Below are positions 19,987 through 32,349 of a stretch of DNA of 64,000 nucleotides, one piece after another. Position 1 is the first letter of the stretch. Each line of letters begins with the position of its first letter. The stretch covers positions 32,001 to 96,000 of the IMG/VR virus record IMGVR_UViG_3300042892_004016; one strand, written 5' to 3'. The stretch comes from a virus. A program made the position numbers and the translations under genes. Below the pieces are notes generated by a model. It searched no databases, was not told the origin of the DNA, and was given only the letters and a program-made list of their open reading frames with translations.

Positions 19987-20009
19987 ACACAACAGCAGTA
20001 AAAAAATTA

Positions 20010-20475
20010 GTTTGATCGAGGTTCCTCGATCCTCCTTGAGTCAGCCGGGGTAAGGCCCGTAGCCGATGGATCTGGAGTATGCCCAAGAGTGATCTTGGGG
20101 AATACCGAGAGGGCAATCAATATAGGGAACCCTCAATGAGTTTATAGTACACTTTGTCTTGAAACTATAAAACATGCGTCGCGGAAGAATTGTGTTAGGC
20201 ACAATAGCTTCACTACAGTCCCATCAAACTTTACAGAGCGACCGGTGGCGAATAATAGCAGAAAAGAGCTGATTATTCGGGGAACAGACAACAAAGGATG
20301 ATGGTCATGGCATGTTTATGATTTTTCCATTGGTAGTGCTTAATAGCACTACCATGGCTTCTAATCGGCATGTGAGTCTTAATACTAATAAGATACCAGT
20401 AAATTAATCCCGAACATATGAGTGAGTGAAACGAACGAATAGAGAAGGGATTAGATGAGCGTTAGCTCATCTCTA
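20010..20475 (+). ncRNA. Candidate large structured non-coding RNA and/or ssDNA origin element (unassigned)
   Basis: About 12 helices in 460 nt with no credible ORF. Examples: GATCGAG/CTCGATC 20014-20031; CCCAAGA-GTGA-TCTTGGG 20082-20099; TTTATAGT/ACTATAAA 20141-20171; ATTGTG/CACAAT 20189-20205; CCATCA/TGATGG 20221-20304; CGAATAAT/ATTATTCG 20249-20279; TGGTAGTGCT/AGCACTACCA 20331-20354; AGATGAGC/GCTCATCT 20453-20472. Confidence 0.6.
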
Positions 20476-20519
20476 GAGTAGTAAATGATATAACCCATTA
20501 GCATATGGTGTGCTATGGC

Positions 20520-20696
20520 TTAGAAGAATGGCATCTGTGATTTCTTGGTAGTCTCTAAGTTTTCTTCAATAATCTCATTAAGTGATACCAGTTCGTCAGG
20601 ACTCATGTTCAACACATCAGTATAAGATACTGACCCGCGCATGTACCAGGCTATTCTTTGTGCGTTCTTTTTGATAGCCTTTACGTCTTTCTCCAT
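20520..20696 (-). CDS. gp51: Small baseplate hub assembly chaperone, gp51-like (58 aa; probably made as a -1 frameshift extension of the gp26-like gene)
   Basis: Below the ORF-track cutoff: MEKDVKAIKKNAQRIAWYMRGSVSYTDVLNMSPDELVSLNEIIEENLETTKKSQMPFF. Frame stays open upstream to 20756, overlapping the end of the gp26-like ORF. Confidence 0.65.
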   Translation of the reverse strand: MEKDVKAIKKNAQRIAWYMRGSVSYTDVLNMSPDELVSLNEIIEENLETTKKSQMPFF

Positions 20697-20706
20697 ATTT
20701 TCAACC

Positions 20707-20756
20707 AGCTTCGTTATACCCGGGGAGTCTAGGTATAGAAGCTTTAGCCGAAAAAA
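20707..20756 (-). promoter_or_regulatory. Programmed -1 ribosomal frameshift signal (T TTT TTC + 6-nt spacer + stem-loop)
   Basis: Heptamer at 20756-20750; stem AGCTTC-TATACC/GGTATA-(AC)-GAAGCT at 20743-20707. Confidence 0.7.
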
Positions 20757-21574
20757 TCGCTTACATTCAACGTGAATGGTTGATCATATTCATGTTGACA
20801 ACTGTTACATGCGATATGCAACGGCTTGGTCTGCGTAGTCTCTCTTAGTGCCACACTGCGATCTTTGATCATATCAAACGTGTTCTTGTCAGTGTTGTAC
20901 AAGAAATCCAGTATGTATGGCTTTTCAGTAACCACTAGTTCTGGTGTGGCAATGTATTCAATGGTATTGGCCAGTACTTCTACCGTGGAATCAGATATGA
21001 TCTTCAGTGCTTCACTTGTTCTTTTTTCTTTATCTGCTCCTTCTTCCATGGCGCTGATACTGTAGAACAGCTTTTGCATCTCAAACTGCTTGATGGTACT
21101 GGCAGTGAGTTCTTTGAATGACAGTGATTTGAACTTGATTTTGAGATCGTTGATATGCAGTGGAATCTCATAATCACCGGGTACAAAGTTGTTGAGTACA
21201 ATACTCAAACTAACGCCATATTGTGCTGTTTCGCTGCAGCTGGGGCAAGTGACTTCCATTTCCATTTCATTGCCGTTTGTTGCAATTTTGATAGCCACCA
21301 GTATGGCATCCAGATCAGTGCTGCTGATTGCCCAGGCATCGTGTATGCAGGGTACGCAACTGCGTATGATGTCTACAACTGCGCTGCCGTTGTACAGTGC
21401 GTCTGGGGTTTTGCTGGTAATCTCATCAATTGCCGTCATGGGATAGACTGGAATTTCTCCGGTTTCGGGCATAGAAATAGTGGCTGCAGTGTAGCCCAAG
21501 CCCCTGCTGGGCAATTTCAAATAGATGCCGGGTCTGCGAAAATACTGTTTTAGTGGGTTATGATCTATGCTCAT
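20744..21574 (-). CDS. gp26: Baseplate hub / tail assembly chaperone, gp26-like (276 aa)
   Basis: Y.KLPS.G, PMTA.DE, D.DAIL.AI.IAT.G, two CxxC pairs (CPSC, CNSC), C-terminal DFFG. Confidence 0.75.
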   Translation of the reverse strand: MSIDHNPLKQYFRRPGIYLKLPSRGLGYTAATISMPETGEIPVYPMTAIDEITSKTPDALYNGSAVVDIIRSCVPCIHDAWAISSTDLDAILVAIKIATNGNEMEMEVTCPSCSETAQYGVSLSIVLNNFVPGDYEIPLHINDLKIKFKSLSFKELTASTIKQFEMQKLFYSISAMEEGADKEKRTSEALKIISDSTVEVLANTIEYIATPELVVTEKPYILDFLYNTDKNTFDMIKDRSVALRETTQTKPLHIACNSCQHEYDQPFTLNVSDFFG

Positions 21575-21606
21575 TGATTTCTCCTAATATGGGCTGGTTG
21601 ACAGAC

Positions 21607-21628
21607 TAAATATACTGAGAAGTATTTA
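21607..21628. promoter_or_regulatory. Face-to-face pair of late promoters ACTAAATA (+, core 21607-21612) and ACTAAATA (-, core 21628-21623)
   Basis: Inverted copies 10 nt apart in the 80-bp divergent gap between gp26 and the first tape-measure-like gene. Confidence 0.65.
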
Positions 21629-21654
21629 GTGGGTAAAAGCAACCGGATAATATA

Positions 21655-23898
21655 ATGGCAGATCAAAGAGAAATACTAGAAGAATTGAACCGTGCAGCCC
21701 GTAGTTTGAGCGATGCCAGTGCGCAGCTGGATCAAAGCAATAGGGCGGCCTCAGTGACTGTCAATCAGGCCGTTAACAGCCTGCAGCTAATGGGATCAGG
21801 TGCAATAGAGTTTTCCCGATCACTGACCAATGGACAAGAGGGCATGTCAAAATATGGTTCTGCTATTGCTGACGCGGCCAGCGGTCTGGGCGGACTGGCG
21901 CAGTTGGCTGGTGGTCCATTTACGTTTGTGCTGGGCGGGCTGATAAAAATAGTGGGCGCAGTGGTGGGTTCAGTGCTGAAAAGCAATGACACCATAATAT
22001 CAGGCTATGACAAGCTGGCTGATGTGGGCGGAGCTGCCGCATTCAGTACTGATAGCTTGATGGCAGCGGCCGGCGCTGCAGATTTTCCCGTCGCAAACGG
22101 TTCCTTTACTAAATTAGTTGACACCATGAGTAAAATGGGCGGAGACCTAATGGGTCTGGGCTCCACCGCTGGTGAAGGCATGAAAAACTTCCTAAAGATA
22201 TCCACTGTGGGGGCTGATGTAAGGCATCAGTTTAACAGATTGGGTATCAGCCAGGAAAAACTCACTCAGGTTCAGGCTCAATATGTGTCTACTCAGTTGA
22301 AGATTGGTGGATTACAGAACAAAGAAACAGACCAATTACGTAAAGAATCATTAGAATACGCCACAGAGCTGATTGAACTGTCTGCAGTAACTGGTCAAAG
22401 TGTAGATCAGATTGCAAAAAATCGGGATGAGGATGCGAAAAATTTAGCTTGGCAATTAAAGTCACGTGAGATACTGGCGCAGGCAAATGGCGAGGCCATT
22501 ATGAAGCGGCTGAATGCTGGGCTTGAGTTATCCAGCAAATATGGCGCAGAGCAACGTTCGGGTATACGCGATGCTATGTCAAGGGATGCCCTGATTACAC
22601 CCGAAGCAATAAGTTTGGGTAATCAATTTGCTCTTGCTGGTGACGATTTGTTGCAGGCAATTGCTGATCTCAAAGCTGATAGAATTACTGCGACTGATTT
22701 TGACCTGCGCATGAAGGTCGCCATAAACAAAGTTGCAGACCAATATGGCCGAACTTTTATGCTGGCTGGAAACGATACTGCAAAACAAACGGCTATAACT
22801 TCAGACAGCCTAACAGGCGCCGCCAAACAGATAGCCAAGGGCAGTCTTGATCAAGCTGCACTTGACGTAGCTGCGGGTAAAGTACGCGCTGACTCTGCAA
22901 AACAAGCCCAAGATGCATTAAAGGATACCAGCCTGGCACTGGCAGAAGCTTTTGACAAGTTTATATCATTGATATCAGGCGCAGTTAACAGAGGATTTGA
23001 GGCCTTGATGTATGCGTTTAAGGCCTTGACCAAGGGTATTTTTAAATTTTTAACCAGTCATGCCTCATTATTTGGAGCCGAGGACATGGATCAGTCGCTT
23101 CCCTACATGTTTGACAGCATTGAAGATTTGGTCAAGATGCAACAAGCTTCAGTTGCTGCCCTGGCTGAAGTGGAAGGAAAAAAACTGTGGGTGCTGAAGC
23201 AAAAAGGACCGAAGCCGAATATAGCTGAGGGCTTGATAGCAACAGCCAGGATGAATCTGATTGAGGGAGAAGAAAAAAAAGTCAAGGCTCAGAAGGCTGG
23301 GGTTACGTTGGCGTTGCAGCAATTGTTGGGCACAAAGGATGTAGACAAAGCACTCAAAGAAAAAGAAGCGGCAGCGGCAGTTGAGCGCAAAAAACAAGAG
23401 ATAAAGGACGCAGCAGCAAAGGTCAGCGCACCCGTAGCAGCTATTAGCGCTAATGTTGAGGCACCAGCTGCTGCTGCAGCACCAAAAACTATTTCAATCG
23501 GCGCTGGCACGGTTGCTCCTCCAACTGAAAAATTTGATAAGGGCGGCGTAGCCAAGCACCCAATGATGTCATTGGGTGCCAGTCCCAATAGTGGACCCAT
23601 AGATATCTCATTACCTGGCGGTAGAGATATTCCCACTACCCTGGAGATGCCGGCAAACCTAACCAGCCAGCGAGATAGTCTATTAACTCAAACTGAAAGC
23701 ATAGACAGAATCTTATCTGGATATACGTCCAATCTTACTGCTGCAGTGGGTAATACTCCTACCACCGCACCAGCATCGACCAGGTCGTTCAATAATGATA
23801 TGATAGTAGCACTATCATACAAACTGGATGAGTTGTTGAATAAAATGAAAGACAATACCAGTTTGCAGAGCGAATTACTAGCACTTTCAAAAAGATAA
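21655..23898 (+). CDS. Tape-measure-like protein, paralogue 1 (747 aa)
   Basis: Ala/Gly/Leu-rich helical sequence, hydrophobic stretches, FDKGGV motif near the C-terminus; adjacent to the chaperone pair. Confidence 0.65.
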   Translation: MADQREILEELNRAARSLSDASAQLDQSNRAASVTVNQAVNSLQLMGSGAIEFSRSLTNGQEGMSKYGSAIADAASGLGGLAQLAGGPFTFVLGGLIKIVGAVVGSVLKSNDTIISGYDKLADVGGAAAFSTDSLMAAAGAADFPVANGSFTKLVDTMSKMGGDLMGLGSTAGEGMKNFLKISTVGADVRHQFNRLGISQEKLTQVQAQYVSTQLKIGGLQNKETDQLRKESLEYATELIELSAVTGQSVDQIAKNRDEDAKNLAWQLKSREILAQANGEAIMKRLNAGLELSSKYGAEQRSGIRDAMSRDALITPEAISLGNQFALAGDDLLQAIADLKADRITATDFDLRMKVAINKVADQYGRTFMLAGNDTAKQTAITSDSLTGAAKQIAKGSLDQAALDVAAGKVRADSAKQAQDALKDTSLALAEAFDKFISLISGAVNRGFEALMYAFKALTKGIFKFLTSHASLFGAEDMDQSLPYMFDSIEDLVKMQQASVAALAEVEGKKLWVLKQKGPKPNIAEGLIATARMNLIEGEEKKVKAQKAGVTLALQQLLGTKDVDKALKEKEAAAAVERKKQEIKDAAAKVSAPVAAISANVEAPAAAAAPKTISIGAGTVAPPTEKFDKGGVAKHPMMSLGASPNSGPIDISLPGGRDIPTTLEMPANLTSQRDSLLTQTESIDRILSGYTSNLTAAVGNTPTTAPASTRSFNNDMIVALSYKLDELLNKMKDNTSLQSELLALSKR

Positions 23899-23904
23899 CA
23901 ACCA

Positions 23905-26403
23905 ATGGCCGAAGAACAGAATCCAGCAGAGTACAATGACCTCGTAAGAGACTTTACCAATGCGACCAAGCAATCGGAAGCGTCGGCCAAGCGTGGCAAG
24001 GATACAGTAGACACATTGAAGTTTGCAATTAGAGACTTGGGTAGAGTGGGCAAGACGGCCTTTACTGGTATACTTGATGTCAATGGCAGTTTTAGTTCAA
24101 TGAATAATTCAGTAACCAGCGCGGGCAATATGCTGCGAAGGCTAACTGGTAGCAATTATAAAACCACAACTGCGCTGTCATTGGTAATCACTGGCATTGA
24201 AAAAACAATAAAATCATTGTTTGGATTCAATGATTCGATGATTAAGTTTTATGACGGATTGGGTGAGTACGGTATAACTGTAGGTCACAGTTCGGATCAA
24301 CTGCTGAAATTGGCACACAGTGCTGGGTACTATTTGGAAAAGTCCGAGGCGTTCTCTAAGCTGTTGACTGAAACTGGCGACTCCCTGCTAGCATTGGCAC
24401 CAACTGCCTCCGAGGGAGCGGACAAGTTGGCGCTGATATTTAATAATACTCAGGGTAAAACACAAGAAGAATTTCTCAAGTTGGGCATAGGTCCCGAACA
24501 ACTGAATAAGATGCAGCTTGATTATATCAAATTGCAGTCAGGATATGGCGCCAAGCTTTCAGGAAATGCGGATCAAATCAGAGAAAGATCAGTGCAGTAT
24601 GCACTAAGCATTAACAAGCTGTCCATGTTGACCGGAGCCAGACGAGAAGCGGTGGCACAGACTCTTGCTGCGGCAAATGCAGATACCAAATTTGCACTAA
24701 AAAAACGCATGCTTGAGCAAGAGGGCAACCTACAGGCCATAGATGCGTTCGATCAAACAGGCACTCTGCTCAATATTACTCTGGGTGAAAAACACGCGGC
24801 TGCATTCAGAGACCTAGCTGCCAACCATACTGCTACTACACTAGAAGGCAAAGCATTGCTGTCAAAAACTGGTGGTAGGATAGTGGGTTGGGTTAGGCAG
24901 TTGGAAGCAGGTCAACTGACTGGAATTGATGTTGCCAAACTTATTGCCAAAACGGAATCAGAATATGTCAGGACTAACCAAGAAGCGGTGAGTGCTAGTG
25001 AAGACTTTCGTAACAACATGTTTTTGAATGGTAAAAGCATGACGGCTGATGCAATACTATCGCAAATAAAAACAGAAAAAGATGTAGAAGAAATGATTAA
25101 AAAACGTCAAGCAGGAATAGACGACGCCAAGCGTCTGCAGAACAGTCAATTGAATACGGAGAGAACGGTTAATATAGCTTTGGATAGGTTAAAACTTGCT
25201 GTGTCCGGCCCTGCCAATTCTGTGTTTATTTGGTTGATTAAAAAAATGACACAGTTGGCGACTGGAGTATTAAAACTAGCGCTACAGCTACCAATTGGAG
25301 AAACACTAAAAGAAAATTTGGAAGAATTTCGTAAAATTTTAGGCGGCGATGTCGAAATACAGCAACAGCTTGATGATATTAACAAAGAAGTCAGCAGAAC
25401 CTCAGAGGAAACTGAAGTCTATGCAAGGATCAGCGGCAATCTTGTGGCTGCAGAAAAAGAAAAAGCACTGGCAGAACAACAGAATATACTACTAACAAAA
25501 AGAATACAAGCTGGAGAAACAATTGATCCCAACATATTACGAGAAAATGAACTTAACCTAACCAAAAAACGAGCTGAAGTAGCAGAAATCAAAAAACGCG
25601 AAGCTGATTTGCTTAAAGGTAGAACTGTGGTTCAACTTGAAGCAGAAAAAAAAGAAGCTGAGGCTCGTAGAGAAAGATACAGAGAAACACTACGTCCTCA
25701 TGAGGTAACTGCATATGAGGAAAGACGAGTTCAAGAGGCCAAACAACAGGCCAATAATTACTCTGGTCTTAATATTAAGGGCGCTGAATCTATAGCAGGT
25801 GGGCCAGTGGATCCCAAACTTATAGAATTGGCCAGACGAATACAGGCCGCAATTCCGGGGGTAAAATTTACGGCGTTCAACGACTTAACTCATAAACGTG
25901 GCAAACACGTTACTGGAACTGCTTTGGATTTTACCATGGATCCTCCACCCAAGAATGCAGAAGAAGCCAAACTGATAAAGAAAAAGTTGTATGATTTGGG
26001 ATTTAGTACCGCATTGGACGAGTATTTTACAGAACGGTCACCCGGTGCTACAGGACCCCACTTTCATGCGGCCTTTGCTGAAGGAGGTGTAGCAACCGGT
26101 TCCAAATCAGGATACGAGGTAACACTGCATGGAACTGAAGCTATCATTCCACTGTTGCCCAATAACACAGTACCAATAAAATTAAAAAATAAAGACAAAT
26201 TATCAGATTTTAGCAGCATAACCAATTCAATCAAATCTAAATTAGCTGATGTTATGGCTAACCAGATAAACAGTGCTGCAGGCAATGATGCACTCACTGA
26301 ATTGTTGGTTAACATGATTAGAGGCAAATTCGTTGCCATGATATCACAAGTAGAAATGAGCAATTCGGTACAGAGTGAGCTAAAAATGTACCTACGTAAC
26401 TAA
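23905..26403 (+). CDS. Tape-measure-like protein, paralogue 2, with peptidase M15-like muralytic domain (832 aa)
   Basis: Aligns by eye with paralogue 1 (F..LGI..E.L...Q..Y...Q; S..YA.....LS..TG). Carries KHVTGTALDF...HFH zinc motif and FAEGGV..G..SGY.VTLHGTEAIIPL tape-measure C-terminal motif. Confidence 0.7.
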   Translation: MAEEQNPAEYNDLVRDFTNATKQSEASAKRGKDTVDTLKFAIRDLGRVGKTAFTGILDVNGSFSSMNNSVTSAGNMLRRLTGSNYKTTTALSLVITGIEKTIKSLFGFNDSMIKFYDGLGEYGITVGHSSDQLLKLAHSAGYYLEKSEAFSKLLTETGDSLLALAPTASEGADKLALIFNNTQGKTQEEFLKLGIGPEQLNKMQLDYIKLQSGYGAKLSGNADQIRERSVQYALSINKLSMLTGARREAVAQTLAAANADTKFALKKRMLEQEGNLQAIDAFDQTGTLLNITLGEKHAAAFRDLAANHTATTLEGKALLSKTGGRIVGWVRQLEAGQLTGIDVAKLIAKTESEYVRTNQEAVSASEDFRNNMFLNGKSMTADAILSQIKTEKDVEEMIKKRQAGIDDAKRLQNSQLNTERTVNIALDRLKLAVSGPANSVFIWLIKKMTQLATGVLKLALQLPIGETLKENLEEFRKILGGDVEIQQQLDDINKEVSRTSEETEVYARISGNLVAAEKEKALAEQQNILLTKRIQAGETIDPNILRENELNLTKKRAEVAEIKKREADLLKGRTVVQLEAEKKEAEARRERYRETLRPHEVTAYEERRVQEAKQQANNYSGLNIKGAESIAGGPVDPKLIELARRIQAAIPGVKFTAFNDLTHKRGKHVTGTALDFTMDPPPKNAEEAKLIKKKLYDLGFSTALDEYFTERSPGATGPHFHAAFAEGGVATGSKSGYEVTLHGTEAIIPLLPNNTVPIKLKNKDKLSDFSSITNSIKSKLADVMANQINSAAGNDALTELLVNMIRGKFVAMISQVEMSNSVQSELKMYLRN

Positions 26404-31152: not shown

Positions 31153-32349
31153 ATGTCACAAGTACTCTTAGAAGGCCGTTGGGACGAAACCAAAGAAGCT
31201 CTGTTAGAAGGCTTAAAAGGTAATCGTCGTTCAACAATGGGTGTTATTTTAGAAAATACCCGTAAAAATTTATTACGTGAATCAAGTGCTGGCACAACTA
31301 CTGCTGGTAACATCGCAACACTTAACCGTGTTATTCTGCCTGTTATCCGTCGTGTAATGCCAACAGTTATCGCTAACGAACTAGTCGGCGTTCAGCCAAT
31401 GACTGGTCCAGTTGGACAGATCCACACACTACGTGTACGTTACGCACAAAGCATGACTGACAGTTCAGCAGCAGCTACTTCTATCACCGCTGGTGAAGAA
31501 GCACTGAGCCCATTCAAGATTGCACAAGCATATTCACGTACACCACAAGGCGCATCATCCGCAACCGGTTATACTGGTAACGATACTGCTGCTCTTGAAG
31601 GCAATGGCGGTAAACAGATCAGCGTACAAATCCTACGTCAAGCTGTTGAAGCTAAGTCACGCAAGCTACAAGCTCGCTGGACATTTGAAGCTGCACAAGA
31701 CGCTCAATCACAACACGGTATTGACGTTGAAGCAGAAATCATGGCCGCACTAGCACAAGAAATTACTGCTGAAATCGACCAAGAGATCCTCTTGAGCCTA
31801 CGTACATTAGCTACAACTGAAGAAACCTTCAACCAAGCTACTGTTAGTGGTACAGCTACATACGTTGGTGACGAGCACGCTGCTTTAGCTGTTCTGATCA
31901 ATCGTGTTGCTAACAAAATCGCTCAACGCACTCGTCGTGGCGCAGGTAACTGGGCAGTTGTTAGCTCAGCAGCATTGACTGTTCTTCAGTCAGCAACAAC
32001 ATCAGCTTTTGCACGTACCACAGAAGGTACATTTGAAGCACCTACAAACACCAAGTTTGTTGGTACATTGAATGGTGCAATGCGCGTGTTCGTTGACTCA
32101 TATGCTCCTGACACTACACCTGTATTGGTTGGTTACAAAGGTTCAAGTGAGACAGACGCAGCAGCATTCTATTGCCCATACATTCCATTGATGAGCAGTG
32201 GTGTTGTTCTGGATCCATCAACCTTCGAACCAGTCGTTAGCTTCATGACTCGCTATGGTTATATCGAGTTAACTAACACTGCCAGTTCGTTTGGTAATGC
32301 AGCCGATTACGTTGGTGAAATCGGAATCAGCAATCTTACATTCCAATAA
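31153..32349 (+). CDS. gp23: Major capsid protein (398 aa)
   Basis: RRVMP..IA.ELVGVQPMTGP.GQI..LR, VEAKSRKL.A.WT.E.AQD....HG.D.EAE, FYCPYIPL, TRYG motifs; strong SD AGGAG. Confidence 0.97.
   Translation: MSQVLLEGRWDETKEALLEGLKGNRRSTMGVILENTRKNLLRESSAGTTTAGNIATLNRVILPVIRRVMPTVIANELVGVQPMTGPVGQIHTLRVRYAQSMTDSSAAATSITAGEEALSPFKIAQAYSRTPQGASSATGYTGNDTAALEGNGGKQISVQILRQAVEAKSRKLQARWTFEAAQDAQSQHGIDVEAEIMAALAQEITAEIDQEILLSLRTLATTEETFNQATVSGTATYVGDEHAALAVLINRVANKIAQRTRRGAGNWAVVSSAALTVLQSATTSAFARTTEGTFEAPTNTKFVGTLNGAMRVFVDSYAPDTTPVLVGYKGSSETDAAAFYCPYIPLMSSGVVLDPSTFEPVVSFMTRYGYIELTNTASSFGNAADYVGEIGISNLTFQ

Follow-up and report, generated by a model that had tools for sequence, protein, structure and literature searches.

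The DNA considered here is a 64,000-nucleotide (nt) stretch of a virus genome (the window; positions 32,001 to 96,000 of IMG/VR record IMGVR_UViG_3300042892_004016), and our subject is a gene on its minus strand, between positions 20,520 and 21,574, that belongs to the same protein family as the bacteriophage T4 baseplate hub assembly chaperones gp26 and gp51. The open reading frame (ORF) of this gene ends just past a heptanucleotide of the kind at which ribosomes can slip by one base, a hairpin follows, and the -1 frame stays open beyond the stop codon, an arrangement that points to a programmed -1 frameshift from which a short and a long form of the chaperone would be made. DNA matching this stretch derives from lake and freshwater metagenomes. 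Contigs of this phage or of relatives ~95% identical to it are also found in four metatranscriptomic libraries (X15-X18) from two studies; DNA carry-over is a possible source of them, and as contigs they are no proof of transcription. One of these contigs, of 6.4 kb, covers the stretch from 20300 to 21700 together with the divergent promoter region.

The slippery site and its surroundings

The features of the cassette, all on the minus strand, are as follows.

20744..21574, minus strand: short-form ORF (276 amino acids (aa), P0001; from the ORF list and its translation), a PF12322 protein of the gp26/gp51 hub assembly chaperone type and the equivalent of the tail assembly chaperone (TAC) product TAC-N
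21581..21585, minus strand: Shine-Dalgarno (SD) sequence AGGAG of the hub gene (20 nt upstream: GCCCATATTAGGAGAAATCA)
20750..20756, minus strand: slippery heptamer T TTT TTC in X XXY YYZ phase, within codons GAT TTT TTC
20744..20746, minus strand: 0-frame stop codon TAA, one codon past the heptamer and within the spacer
20707..20743, minus strand: putative stimulatory hairpin of 6+6 base pairs (bp) with a 2-nt bulge and an 11-nt loop, beginning 6 nt past the heptamer
20520..20756, minus strand: -1 frame reading (FF plus 76 codons and a stop; P0002), the predicted C-terminal extension of a 351-aa long form (TAC-NC equivalent)

The 3' end of the 276-aa ORF reads ...AGC GAT TTT TTC GGC TAA on the minus strand. 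The spacer GGCTAA separates the heptamer from the hairpin, which runs from 20743 to 20707 as AGCTTC-TATACC, the loop TAGACTCCCCG, GGTATA, the bulge AC and GAAGCT. From the heptamer onward the -1 frame encodes FFRLKLL...MPFF (FFRLKLLYLDSPGITKLVENMEKD...MPFF) and closes at a stop at 20522-20520, a 78-aa reading that has no family match in Pfam or PHROG; its 3' part is the 58-aa ORF that can be annotated from ATG 20696. The predicted trans-frame product has 351 aa and its N terminus in common with the 276-aa short form.

The heptamer, the 12-bp bulged hairpin 6 nt downstream of it and the ends of the ORFs all lie where a first-pass annotation of this DNA had placed them, and the two product lengths that it predicted, 276 and 351 aa, are reproduced from the sequence. 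It had also remarked that the downstream ORF is without a clear SD; indeed, ATG 20696 is preceded by no SD-like motif, compared with 21 of the 33 large genes of the window that have one and with the AGGAG of the hub gene itself. The stop codon of the extension adjoins a gene-free structured region (20009-20519), so the frameshifted gene ends at the edge of this region.

Conservation of the heptamer, the hairpin and the extension

The locus was compared with ~130 related loci, which comprise 14 cultured jumbo phages and 115 uncultured contigs (80 + 35). The first 80 uncultured relatives (47-99% identity, hereafter the lake loci) were drawn from 434 confirmed ones; a further 36 loci were reached through the DNA of relatives of representative proteins with variant ends (...SFLD, ...NFVKK), and 35 of these were readable, as one ran off its contig. 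The nearest cultured relatives are jumbo myoviruses at 26-34% identity (Phosso, Atu_ph07, PA5oct, XaC1, CBB, GAP32, 121Q, RaK2, SCTP-2 and RAS14), and a blastn search of the locus against GenBank phages gave no match.

An in-phase X XXY YYZ heptamer is present in every readable locus. In the cultured relatives (14/14) it is T TTT TTC, or T TTT TTT in RAS14, and the 0-frame stop follows after 3-33 nt. In these 14 phages the -1 frame becomes open only 13-49 nt ahead of that stop and remains so for 58-75 codons past it, and the +1 frame is closed within 2-29 codons. All 80 lake loci contain T TTT TTC exactly 3 nt ahead of the stop, in 79 of them the -1 frame continues past the stop for exactly 74 open codons (the exception is cut by a contig end), and in 51 of the 80 a -1-frame stop stands directly before the heptamer. 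Among the 35 further loci, 28 have T TTT TTC, one has T TTT TTT and six have A AAT TTT, with a -1 frame that is open for 71-75 codons wherever the contig end does not cut it. The A AAT TTT loci form a clade (IMG/VR contigs L106-L111, at about locus position 1433-1439) in which this alternative but canonical heptamer stands in place of T TTT TTC, in phase and 3 nt upstream; their -1 frame has 75 open codons, and the trans-frame peptide is again NFFIRSL. Conservation across homologues, the check that the first-pass annotation had proposed for its frameshift, thus bears it out, with the heptamer in phase in all readable loci and no stop in the -1 frame that speaks against it.

In-phase heptamers are common elsewhere in these genes (99 in 22,679 codons), so the signal is carried by the fixed position of this one. 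F274 and F275, the residues that it encodes, are invariant; in an alignment of 68 representatives of 29-48% identity, only two other columns are so. Given x-F-F in the protein, the codons NNT-TTT-TTC are expected at a frequency of 0.16 from the genes' own codon usage and are seen in 80 of 81 distinct genes. In addition, a phmmer search of 1.84 billion representative sequences gave 1,027 matches; among the best 150 of these, no protein continues in frame at its C terminus (those that are longer have their extra residues at the N terminus) and 123 terminate in FF plus 1-12 residues, which indicates that the stop right after the slip site is itself conserved.

The hairpin is likewise supported by several measures. 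In the window, the local fold has a free energy of -21.6 kcal/mol (z = -3.3), and none of 200 shuffled sequences folds as well. When the 12-pair structure is imposed on 62 distinct sequences of the lake clade, 82% of the cells are paired, compared with 36-46% when the partner columns are slid by 1-3 positions. Changes on both sides of a pair occur in 51 cells over 6 pairs, and shuffles give 18.6 +/- 6.3, with 0 of 500 reaching 51; in one compensatory example CTTCT...CAGAAG has become CTTTT...CAAAAG through paired synonymous changes in a Leu and a Gln codon. A hairpin at similar spacing is found in the distant relatives Phosso, Atu_ph07, PA5oct, XaC1 and 121Q. The minimum-energy fold of 20698-20754 adds a lower helix to the hairpin, in which the U-run and CGGC are paired with GGUUGAAAA before ATG 20696; since the columns of this lower helix lack conservation in a 67-sequence alignment, it is probably specific to this phage.

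A homopolymeric site could instead be one at which RNA polymerase slips, adding one U on the T-run so that a minority of the mRNAs encode the long form in a single frame, and the run of T6 (T7 in RAS14 and in contig locus L112) is what recommends this explanation. Known transcriptional slippage sites usually have 7-9 or more identical bases, however, so this run is short for one, and polymerase slippage has no need of the X XXY YYZ phase that is found in all readable loci. Furthermore, one clade has exchanged the run for A AAT TTT, still in phase, and a covarying hairpin 6 nt downstream is the geometry of ribosomal frameshifting, so we regard transcriptional slippage as improbable. The RNA-library contigs that cross the junction contain no indel, a neutral result, as contigs cannot show minority species.

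The pattern of substitutions places the change of frame at the heptamer. In 67 unique sequences, the variability at codon positions 1, 2 and 3 is 0.82, 0.55 and 1.32 upstream of the heptamer in frame 0, and 0.81, 0.58 and 1.27 in the -1 frame over the first 54 nt past it. The switch of the coding pattern (position 3 > 1 > 2) from frame 0 to frame -1 therefore coincides with the heptamer, and the 54 nt that precede the commonest ATG already follow the -1 frame. The extension is, as read from these alignments, under purifying selection.

These values bear on another explanation, that the locus holds two separate genes, with a 58-aa protein made from ATG 20696 by its own initiation or by termination-reinitiation and a heptamer that reflects nothing but conserved Phe-Phe codons. 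The FF pair is conserved at the protein level, but so is the synonymous choice NNT-TTT-TTC at the level of DNA. Many extensions of the lake clade have an ATG at codon 18 (36 of 66 distinct ones), yet across the 66 the first ATG, GTG or TTG lies anywhere from codon 1 to 32, with no start conserved and in some loci beyond conserved residues, and the lengths that gene callers give for the ORF vary from 44 to 95 aa. The small ORF is annotated apart in 12 of the 14 GenBank records, all 12 times in the -1 frame (no record has a joined coding sequence), and this is the frame in which it always lies (15/15, 80/80 and 34/34 readable loci). Separate genes would also leave aside that the 54 nt ahead of the common ATG already vary in the manner of coding sequence in the -1 frame, that the -1 frame is open back to the heptamer and often not one codon further, that ATG 20696 has no SD, and that the hairpin sits at frameshift spacing while covering the region just upstream of this ATG. 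On this evidence, two independently initiated genes are very unlikely, slightly more so than a slipping polymerase. That a 1-nt change disrupted a long ancestral gene, leaving the downstream frame as a coincidental or decaying remnant, has a negligible probability, given that the arrangement is kept in all ~130 loci and across lineages at 26-34% identity, that the extension is under purifying selection and that no in-frame version exists among the best 150 representatives.

The locus has the sequence features of a canonical -1 frameshift cassette, with a heptamer in the required phase, a structure within 5-9 nt downstream and a conserved -1 ORF that lacks its own initiation signals. The programmed -1 frameshift claimed by the first-pass annotation is supported by the conservation over ~130 loci, the frame switch at the heptamer, the covariation of the hairpin and the presence of one PF12322 gene instead of two (complete genomes of Atu_ph07, PA5oct, 121Q and RaK2 have one, and that of T4 has two). 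It is from these observations that we infer slippage, and they make it very probable that programmed -1 frameshifting in this gp26/gp51-family gene is real.

In the mechanism that we propose, most ribosomes would translate frame 0 to the TAA at 20746-20744 and release the 276-aa short form. A fraction, detained by the hairpin 6 nt downstream, would pause at U UUU UUC with tRNA-Phe on UUU in the P site and on UUC in the A site, and would slip one base backward, after which both tRNAs would still be paired with UUU. Translation would then continue as CGG CUA AAG... for 76 more codons and yield the 351-aa long form, with the same N-terminal 275 residues followed by a helical tail.

Relation to T4 gp26 and gp51 and to recoded chaperones of other phages

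The short form matches PF12322 (T4_baseplate) with 55.8 bits (cut-off 24.5) over profile positions 26-218 of 219, and it also matches the baseplate hub family phrog_150. PF12322 is matched by all 68 representatives, and a six-frame search of the genome gave only this one hit. An AlphaFold2 (AF2) model of the short form is confident (predicted local distance difference test (pLDDT) 94.8, predicted template modelling score (pTM) 0.89) and flexible only at the last residues, around the slip site. Among the 68 representatives C73 and D87 are invariant and four Cys, in two CxxC pairs (C110 and C113, C256 and C259), are near-invariant; together with weak zinc-ribbon Pfam hits in many members, these four Cys suggest a zinc site.

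A review of the T4 tail (PMC3004832) counts gp26 and gp51 among the hub assembly chaperones and states that gp51, although required for assembly, is no part of the particle; the NCBI name of gp26 is 'baseplate hub assembly chaperone'. Both gp26 (208 aa) and gp51 (249 aa) are PF12322 proteins. The domain covers residues 1-206 of gp26 and ends at residue 201 of gp51, leaving a 48-aa C-terminal tail, and gp26 ends in ...EFFELL, at the position of the FF of the jumbo phage proteins. As is predicted for the chaperone in the window, T4 has one product that stops at the FF position and a longer one that bears a C-terminal tail. The gene orders are also alike, as T4 gene 26 is divergent from genes 51-27-28-29 and the chaperone gene described here is divergent from tape-measure-like genes. 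Unlike the single gene proposed to be recoded by a -1 frameshift here, however, T4 has two paralogous genes; the end of its gene 26 has no slippery site and is directly followed by gene 25. The jumbo proteins are also ~70 aa longer in the shared domain, and their identity to the T4 proteins is too low for BLAST.

These relationships modify the names given in the first-pass annotation, which had called the upstream ORF gp26-like and the downstream ORF gp51-like. The family was correctly recognised, but PF12322 takes in both T4 proteins, which makes gp51-like as apt a name for the upstream ORF as gp26-like. The downstream ORF is not a gp51-like gene; there is moderate evidence from sequence comparison that it corresponds at most to the 48-aa C-terminal tail of gp51.

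By homology, then, the short form would resemble T4 gp26 and the long form gp51. In a joint alignment, VFKLLVNPDEI of the gp51 tail stands against FFRxxLLxxPEEI of the extension, and ...SKMIPAERGFVLKLIEK against ...LNMSxxERxxIxxxI, with an LL..P(D/E)E(I/V) block that is collinear between the two. When a profile of the extension was compared with one of the gp51 tail by hhalign, the score was 22.3 (P = 3.2e-4); 300 column-permuted nulls had a mean of 10.0, a standard deviation of 2.2 and a maximum of 19.8, and the reversed control scored 11.3. In the database, gp51 homologues consist of PF12322 plus PF28602 and gp26 homologues of PF12322 only. Homology of the extension to the gp51 tail is therefore considered probable, though not proven.

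An unrooted tree of the shared domain, obtained by a quick search, contains the jumbo phage, gp26 and gp51 proteins as three monophyletic groups, and midpoint rooting joins gp26 with gp51. This placement fits a duplication in the T4 lineage, with the order of events not polarised by the tree. One could tentatively propose, at somewhat less than even chances, that a -1 frameshift is the ancestral means of making short and long hub chaperones across T4-like and jumbo myoviruses, and that T4 genes 26 and 51 are a later duplication in which the two frames were hard-wired. If this is true, the recoded and duplicated systems are a natural pair for asking why a fixed ratio of short to long form matters.

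A connection between the T4 proteins and TACs has been published. PMC10885494 attributes to Vladimirov, Gautam & Davidson (Virology 2022) the view that T4-like phages have one short and one long (fusion) TAC gene in place of frameshifting, and PMC12846349, citing Vladimirov et al. 2022, describes poly-T slippery sequences in TAC-N genes of T4-like phages. Read in this way, the window holds a frameshifting member of the family, its short product being the gp26-like TAC-N and its long product the gp51-like TAC-NC. The idea of the first-pass annotation that gp26 and gp51 are the equivalent of lambda G/GT was not new, as it is described in papers that cite Vladimirov et al. 2022.

The proposed system is like lambda G/GT and P2 E/E+E' in that a -1 slip occurs near the 3' end of a small tail-assembly gene by the tape measure gene (Xu, Hendrix & Duda, Mol Cell 2004; PMC9024508; PMC10885494), and in that a major short and a minor long form have the N terminus in common. 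The lambda and P2 chaperones differ from the hub chaperone in having no detectable similarity to it in sequence or fold; the shared domain of the hub chaperone is much larger (275 aa) and contains the four-Cys zinc-ribbon-like site, and its gene is divergent from the tape-measure-like genes, not just upstream of them. Another parallel is the TAC frameshift of the Pakpunavirus/Vandenendeviridae and Andersonviridae myoviruses (conserved GTTTTT motif; PMC12846349). There, too, a poly-T site lies at the end of TAC-N, the ORF that follows is as a rule wrongly annotated as hypothetical, and frameshifting was argued from a -1 frame that is uninterrupted across many genomes (PMC12846349). Those phages belong to a different group, and the case in the window adds the covariation of the hairpin and the clade with an alternative heptamer.

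Both the mechanism and the logic of the chaperones are of a known kind. What is new is the breadth of conservation (the group of RaK2, PA5oct and Atu_ph07 as well as the lake phages), the covarying hairpin, the alternative heptamer and the statistics that relate the extension to the gp51 tail; the hairpin and the alternative heptamer may not have been described in earlier work. Literature searches that joined RaK2 or jumbo phage with frameshift and chaperone found no paper, and there is no mention of a frameshift in the papers on PA5oct and CBB.

Neighbouring genes and the proposed chaperone role

Two genes on the opposite strand are of interest as a possible source of the chaperone's client.

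21655..23898, plus strand: 747-aa tape-measure-like protein, the candidate client, divergent from the chaperone gene
23905..26403, plus strand: 832-aa second tape-measure-like paralogue

The 747- and 832-aa proteins are paralogous (25% identity over 468 aa, E = 4e-21). Their genes are in tandem between the chaperone gene and the portal gene, and both proteins have Gly/Ala-rich hydrophobic segments. The features that the ESM language model assigns to the 747-aa protein place it near clusters of tape measure proteins (TMPs; score 0.94), and its homologues are annotated as virion structural protein in CBB and PA5oct and as TMP-like in RaK2; neither protein matches a Pfam or PHROG family. The first-pass annotation had described two tape-measure genes transcribed divergently from the chaperone, and their orientation and paralogy stand, but without a family match their identity as tape measures is only a lead. 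It would be unusual for one phage to have two tape-measure-like genes. The genes around the locus resemble those of T4 (portal, prohead protease and gp46/47-like nuclease), and the tail tube family PF06841 was not found in the record, which is 28% complete.

The chaperone function and its client we infer from homology and analogy. As in lambda G/GT, the shared domain may hold the TMP during initiation of the hub and tube, the extension may add a second contact, and the rate of slippage would set the ratio of short to long form. A role as a tape measure chaperone is in our judgement reasonably likely, clearly less so than the frameshift itself. A complex prediction for the hub protein with residues 1-720 of the 747-aa protein scored 0.00, which is evidence neither for nor against an interaction.

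Several points count against parts of this interpretation. The trans-frame product is a prediction from sequence. Downstream of the heptamer, the folds of Yen9-04, PHA46, XbC2 and RaK2 are no better than those of shuffled sequences, so that several RaK2-like enterobacterial phages have no stable structure at the expected spacing; the heptamer, present in all readable loci, is thus universal and the stimulator lineage-specific. A HMMER profile of the extension detected nothing in a six-frame search of the T4 genome, which is why homology with the gp51 tail is rated only as probable, and the small-ORF relatives of the extension have no precomputed Pfam domain, in contrast to the PF28602 of gp51 tails. 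That the 747- and 832-aa genes encode tape measures is no more than a lead. A Pfam scan of the representatives gave no hit to a TAC family, and the model of the hub protein has no convincing structural relative among solved proteins, known TACs included. Sequence searches of the PDB with two profiles found nothing meaningful, the best Foldseek match to the PDB had an E value of 0.34, and the best VIA-align match (Z 7.3) involved only a generic helical hairpin; YqbN (3klu; Z 6.0, root-mean-square deviation 6.2 over residues 1-102) is within noise and was not used as evidence. With a confident AF2 model and no convincing PDB relative, the PF12322 fold seems to be one that is without a solved structure.

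If our interpretation is correct, the T4-type hub chaperone family also obeys the G/GT rule, in which a single gene for tail assembly yields two products at a fixed ratio, and the puzzling T4 paralogues 26 and 51 are tied to that rule. The cassette would also be well suited to the training of frameshift predictors, as a clean case of U UUU UUC plus hairpin that is supported by covariation. None of the 14 cultured phages has the long form in its annotation, the extension being either a small hypothetical protein whose start is arbitrary or not called, so a correct annotation would be useful for proteomics and cryo-electron microscopy of these phages, some of which are candidates for phage therapy. 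The records of PA5oct (L003) and RaK2 (L009) have no annotation over the conserved extension, and the hub chaperone itself is misnamed in those of Yen9-04 (L011), as 'Lead, cadmium, zinc and mercury transporting ATPase', and WPEC5 (H26), as 'portal protein'.

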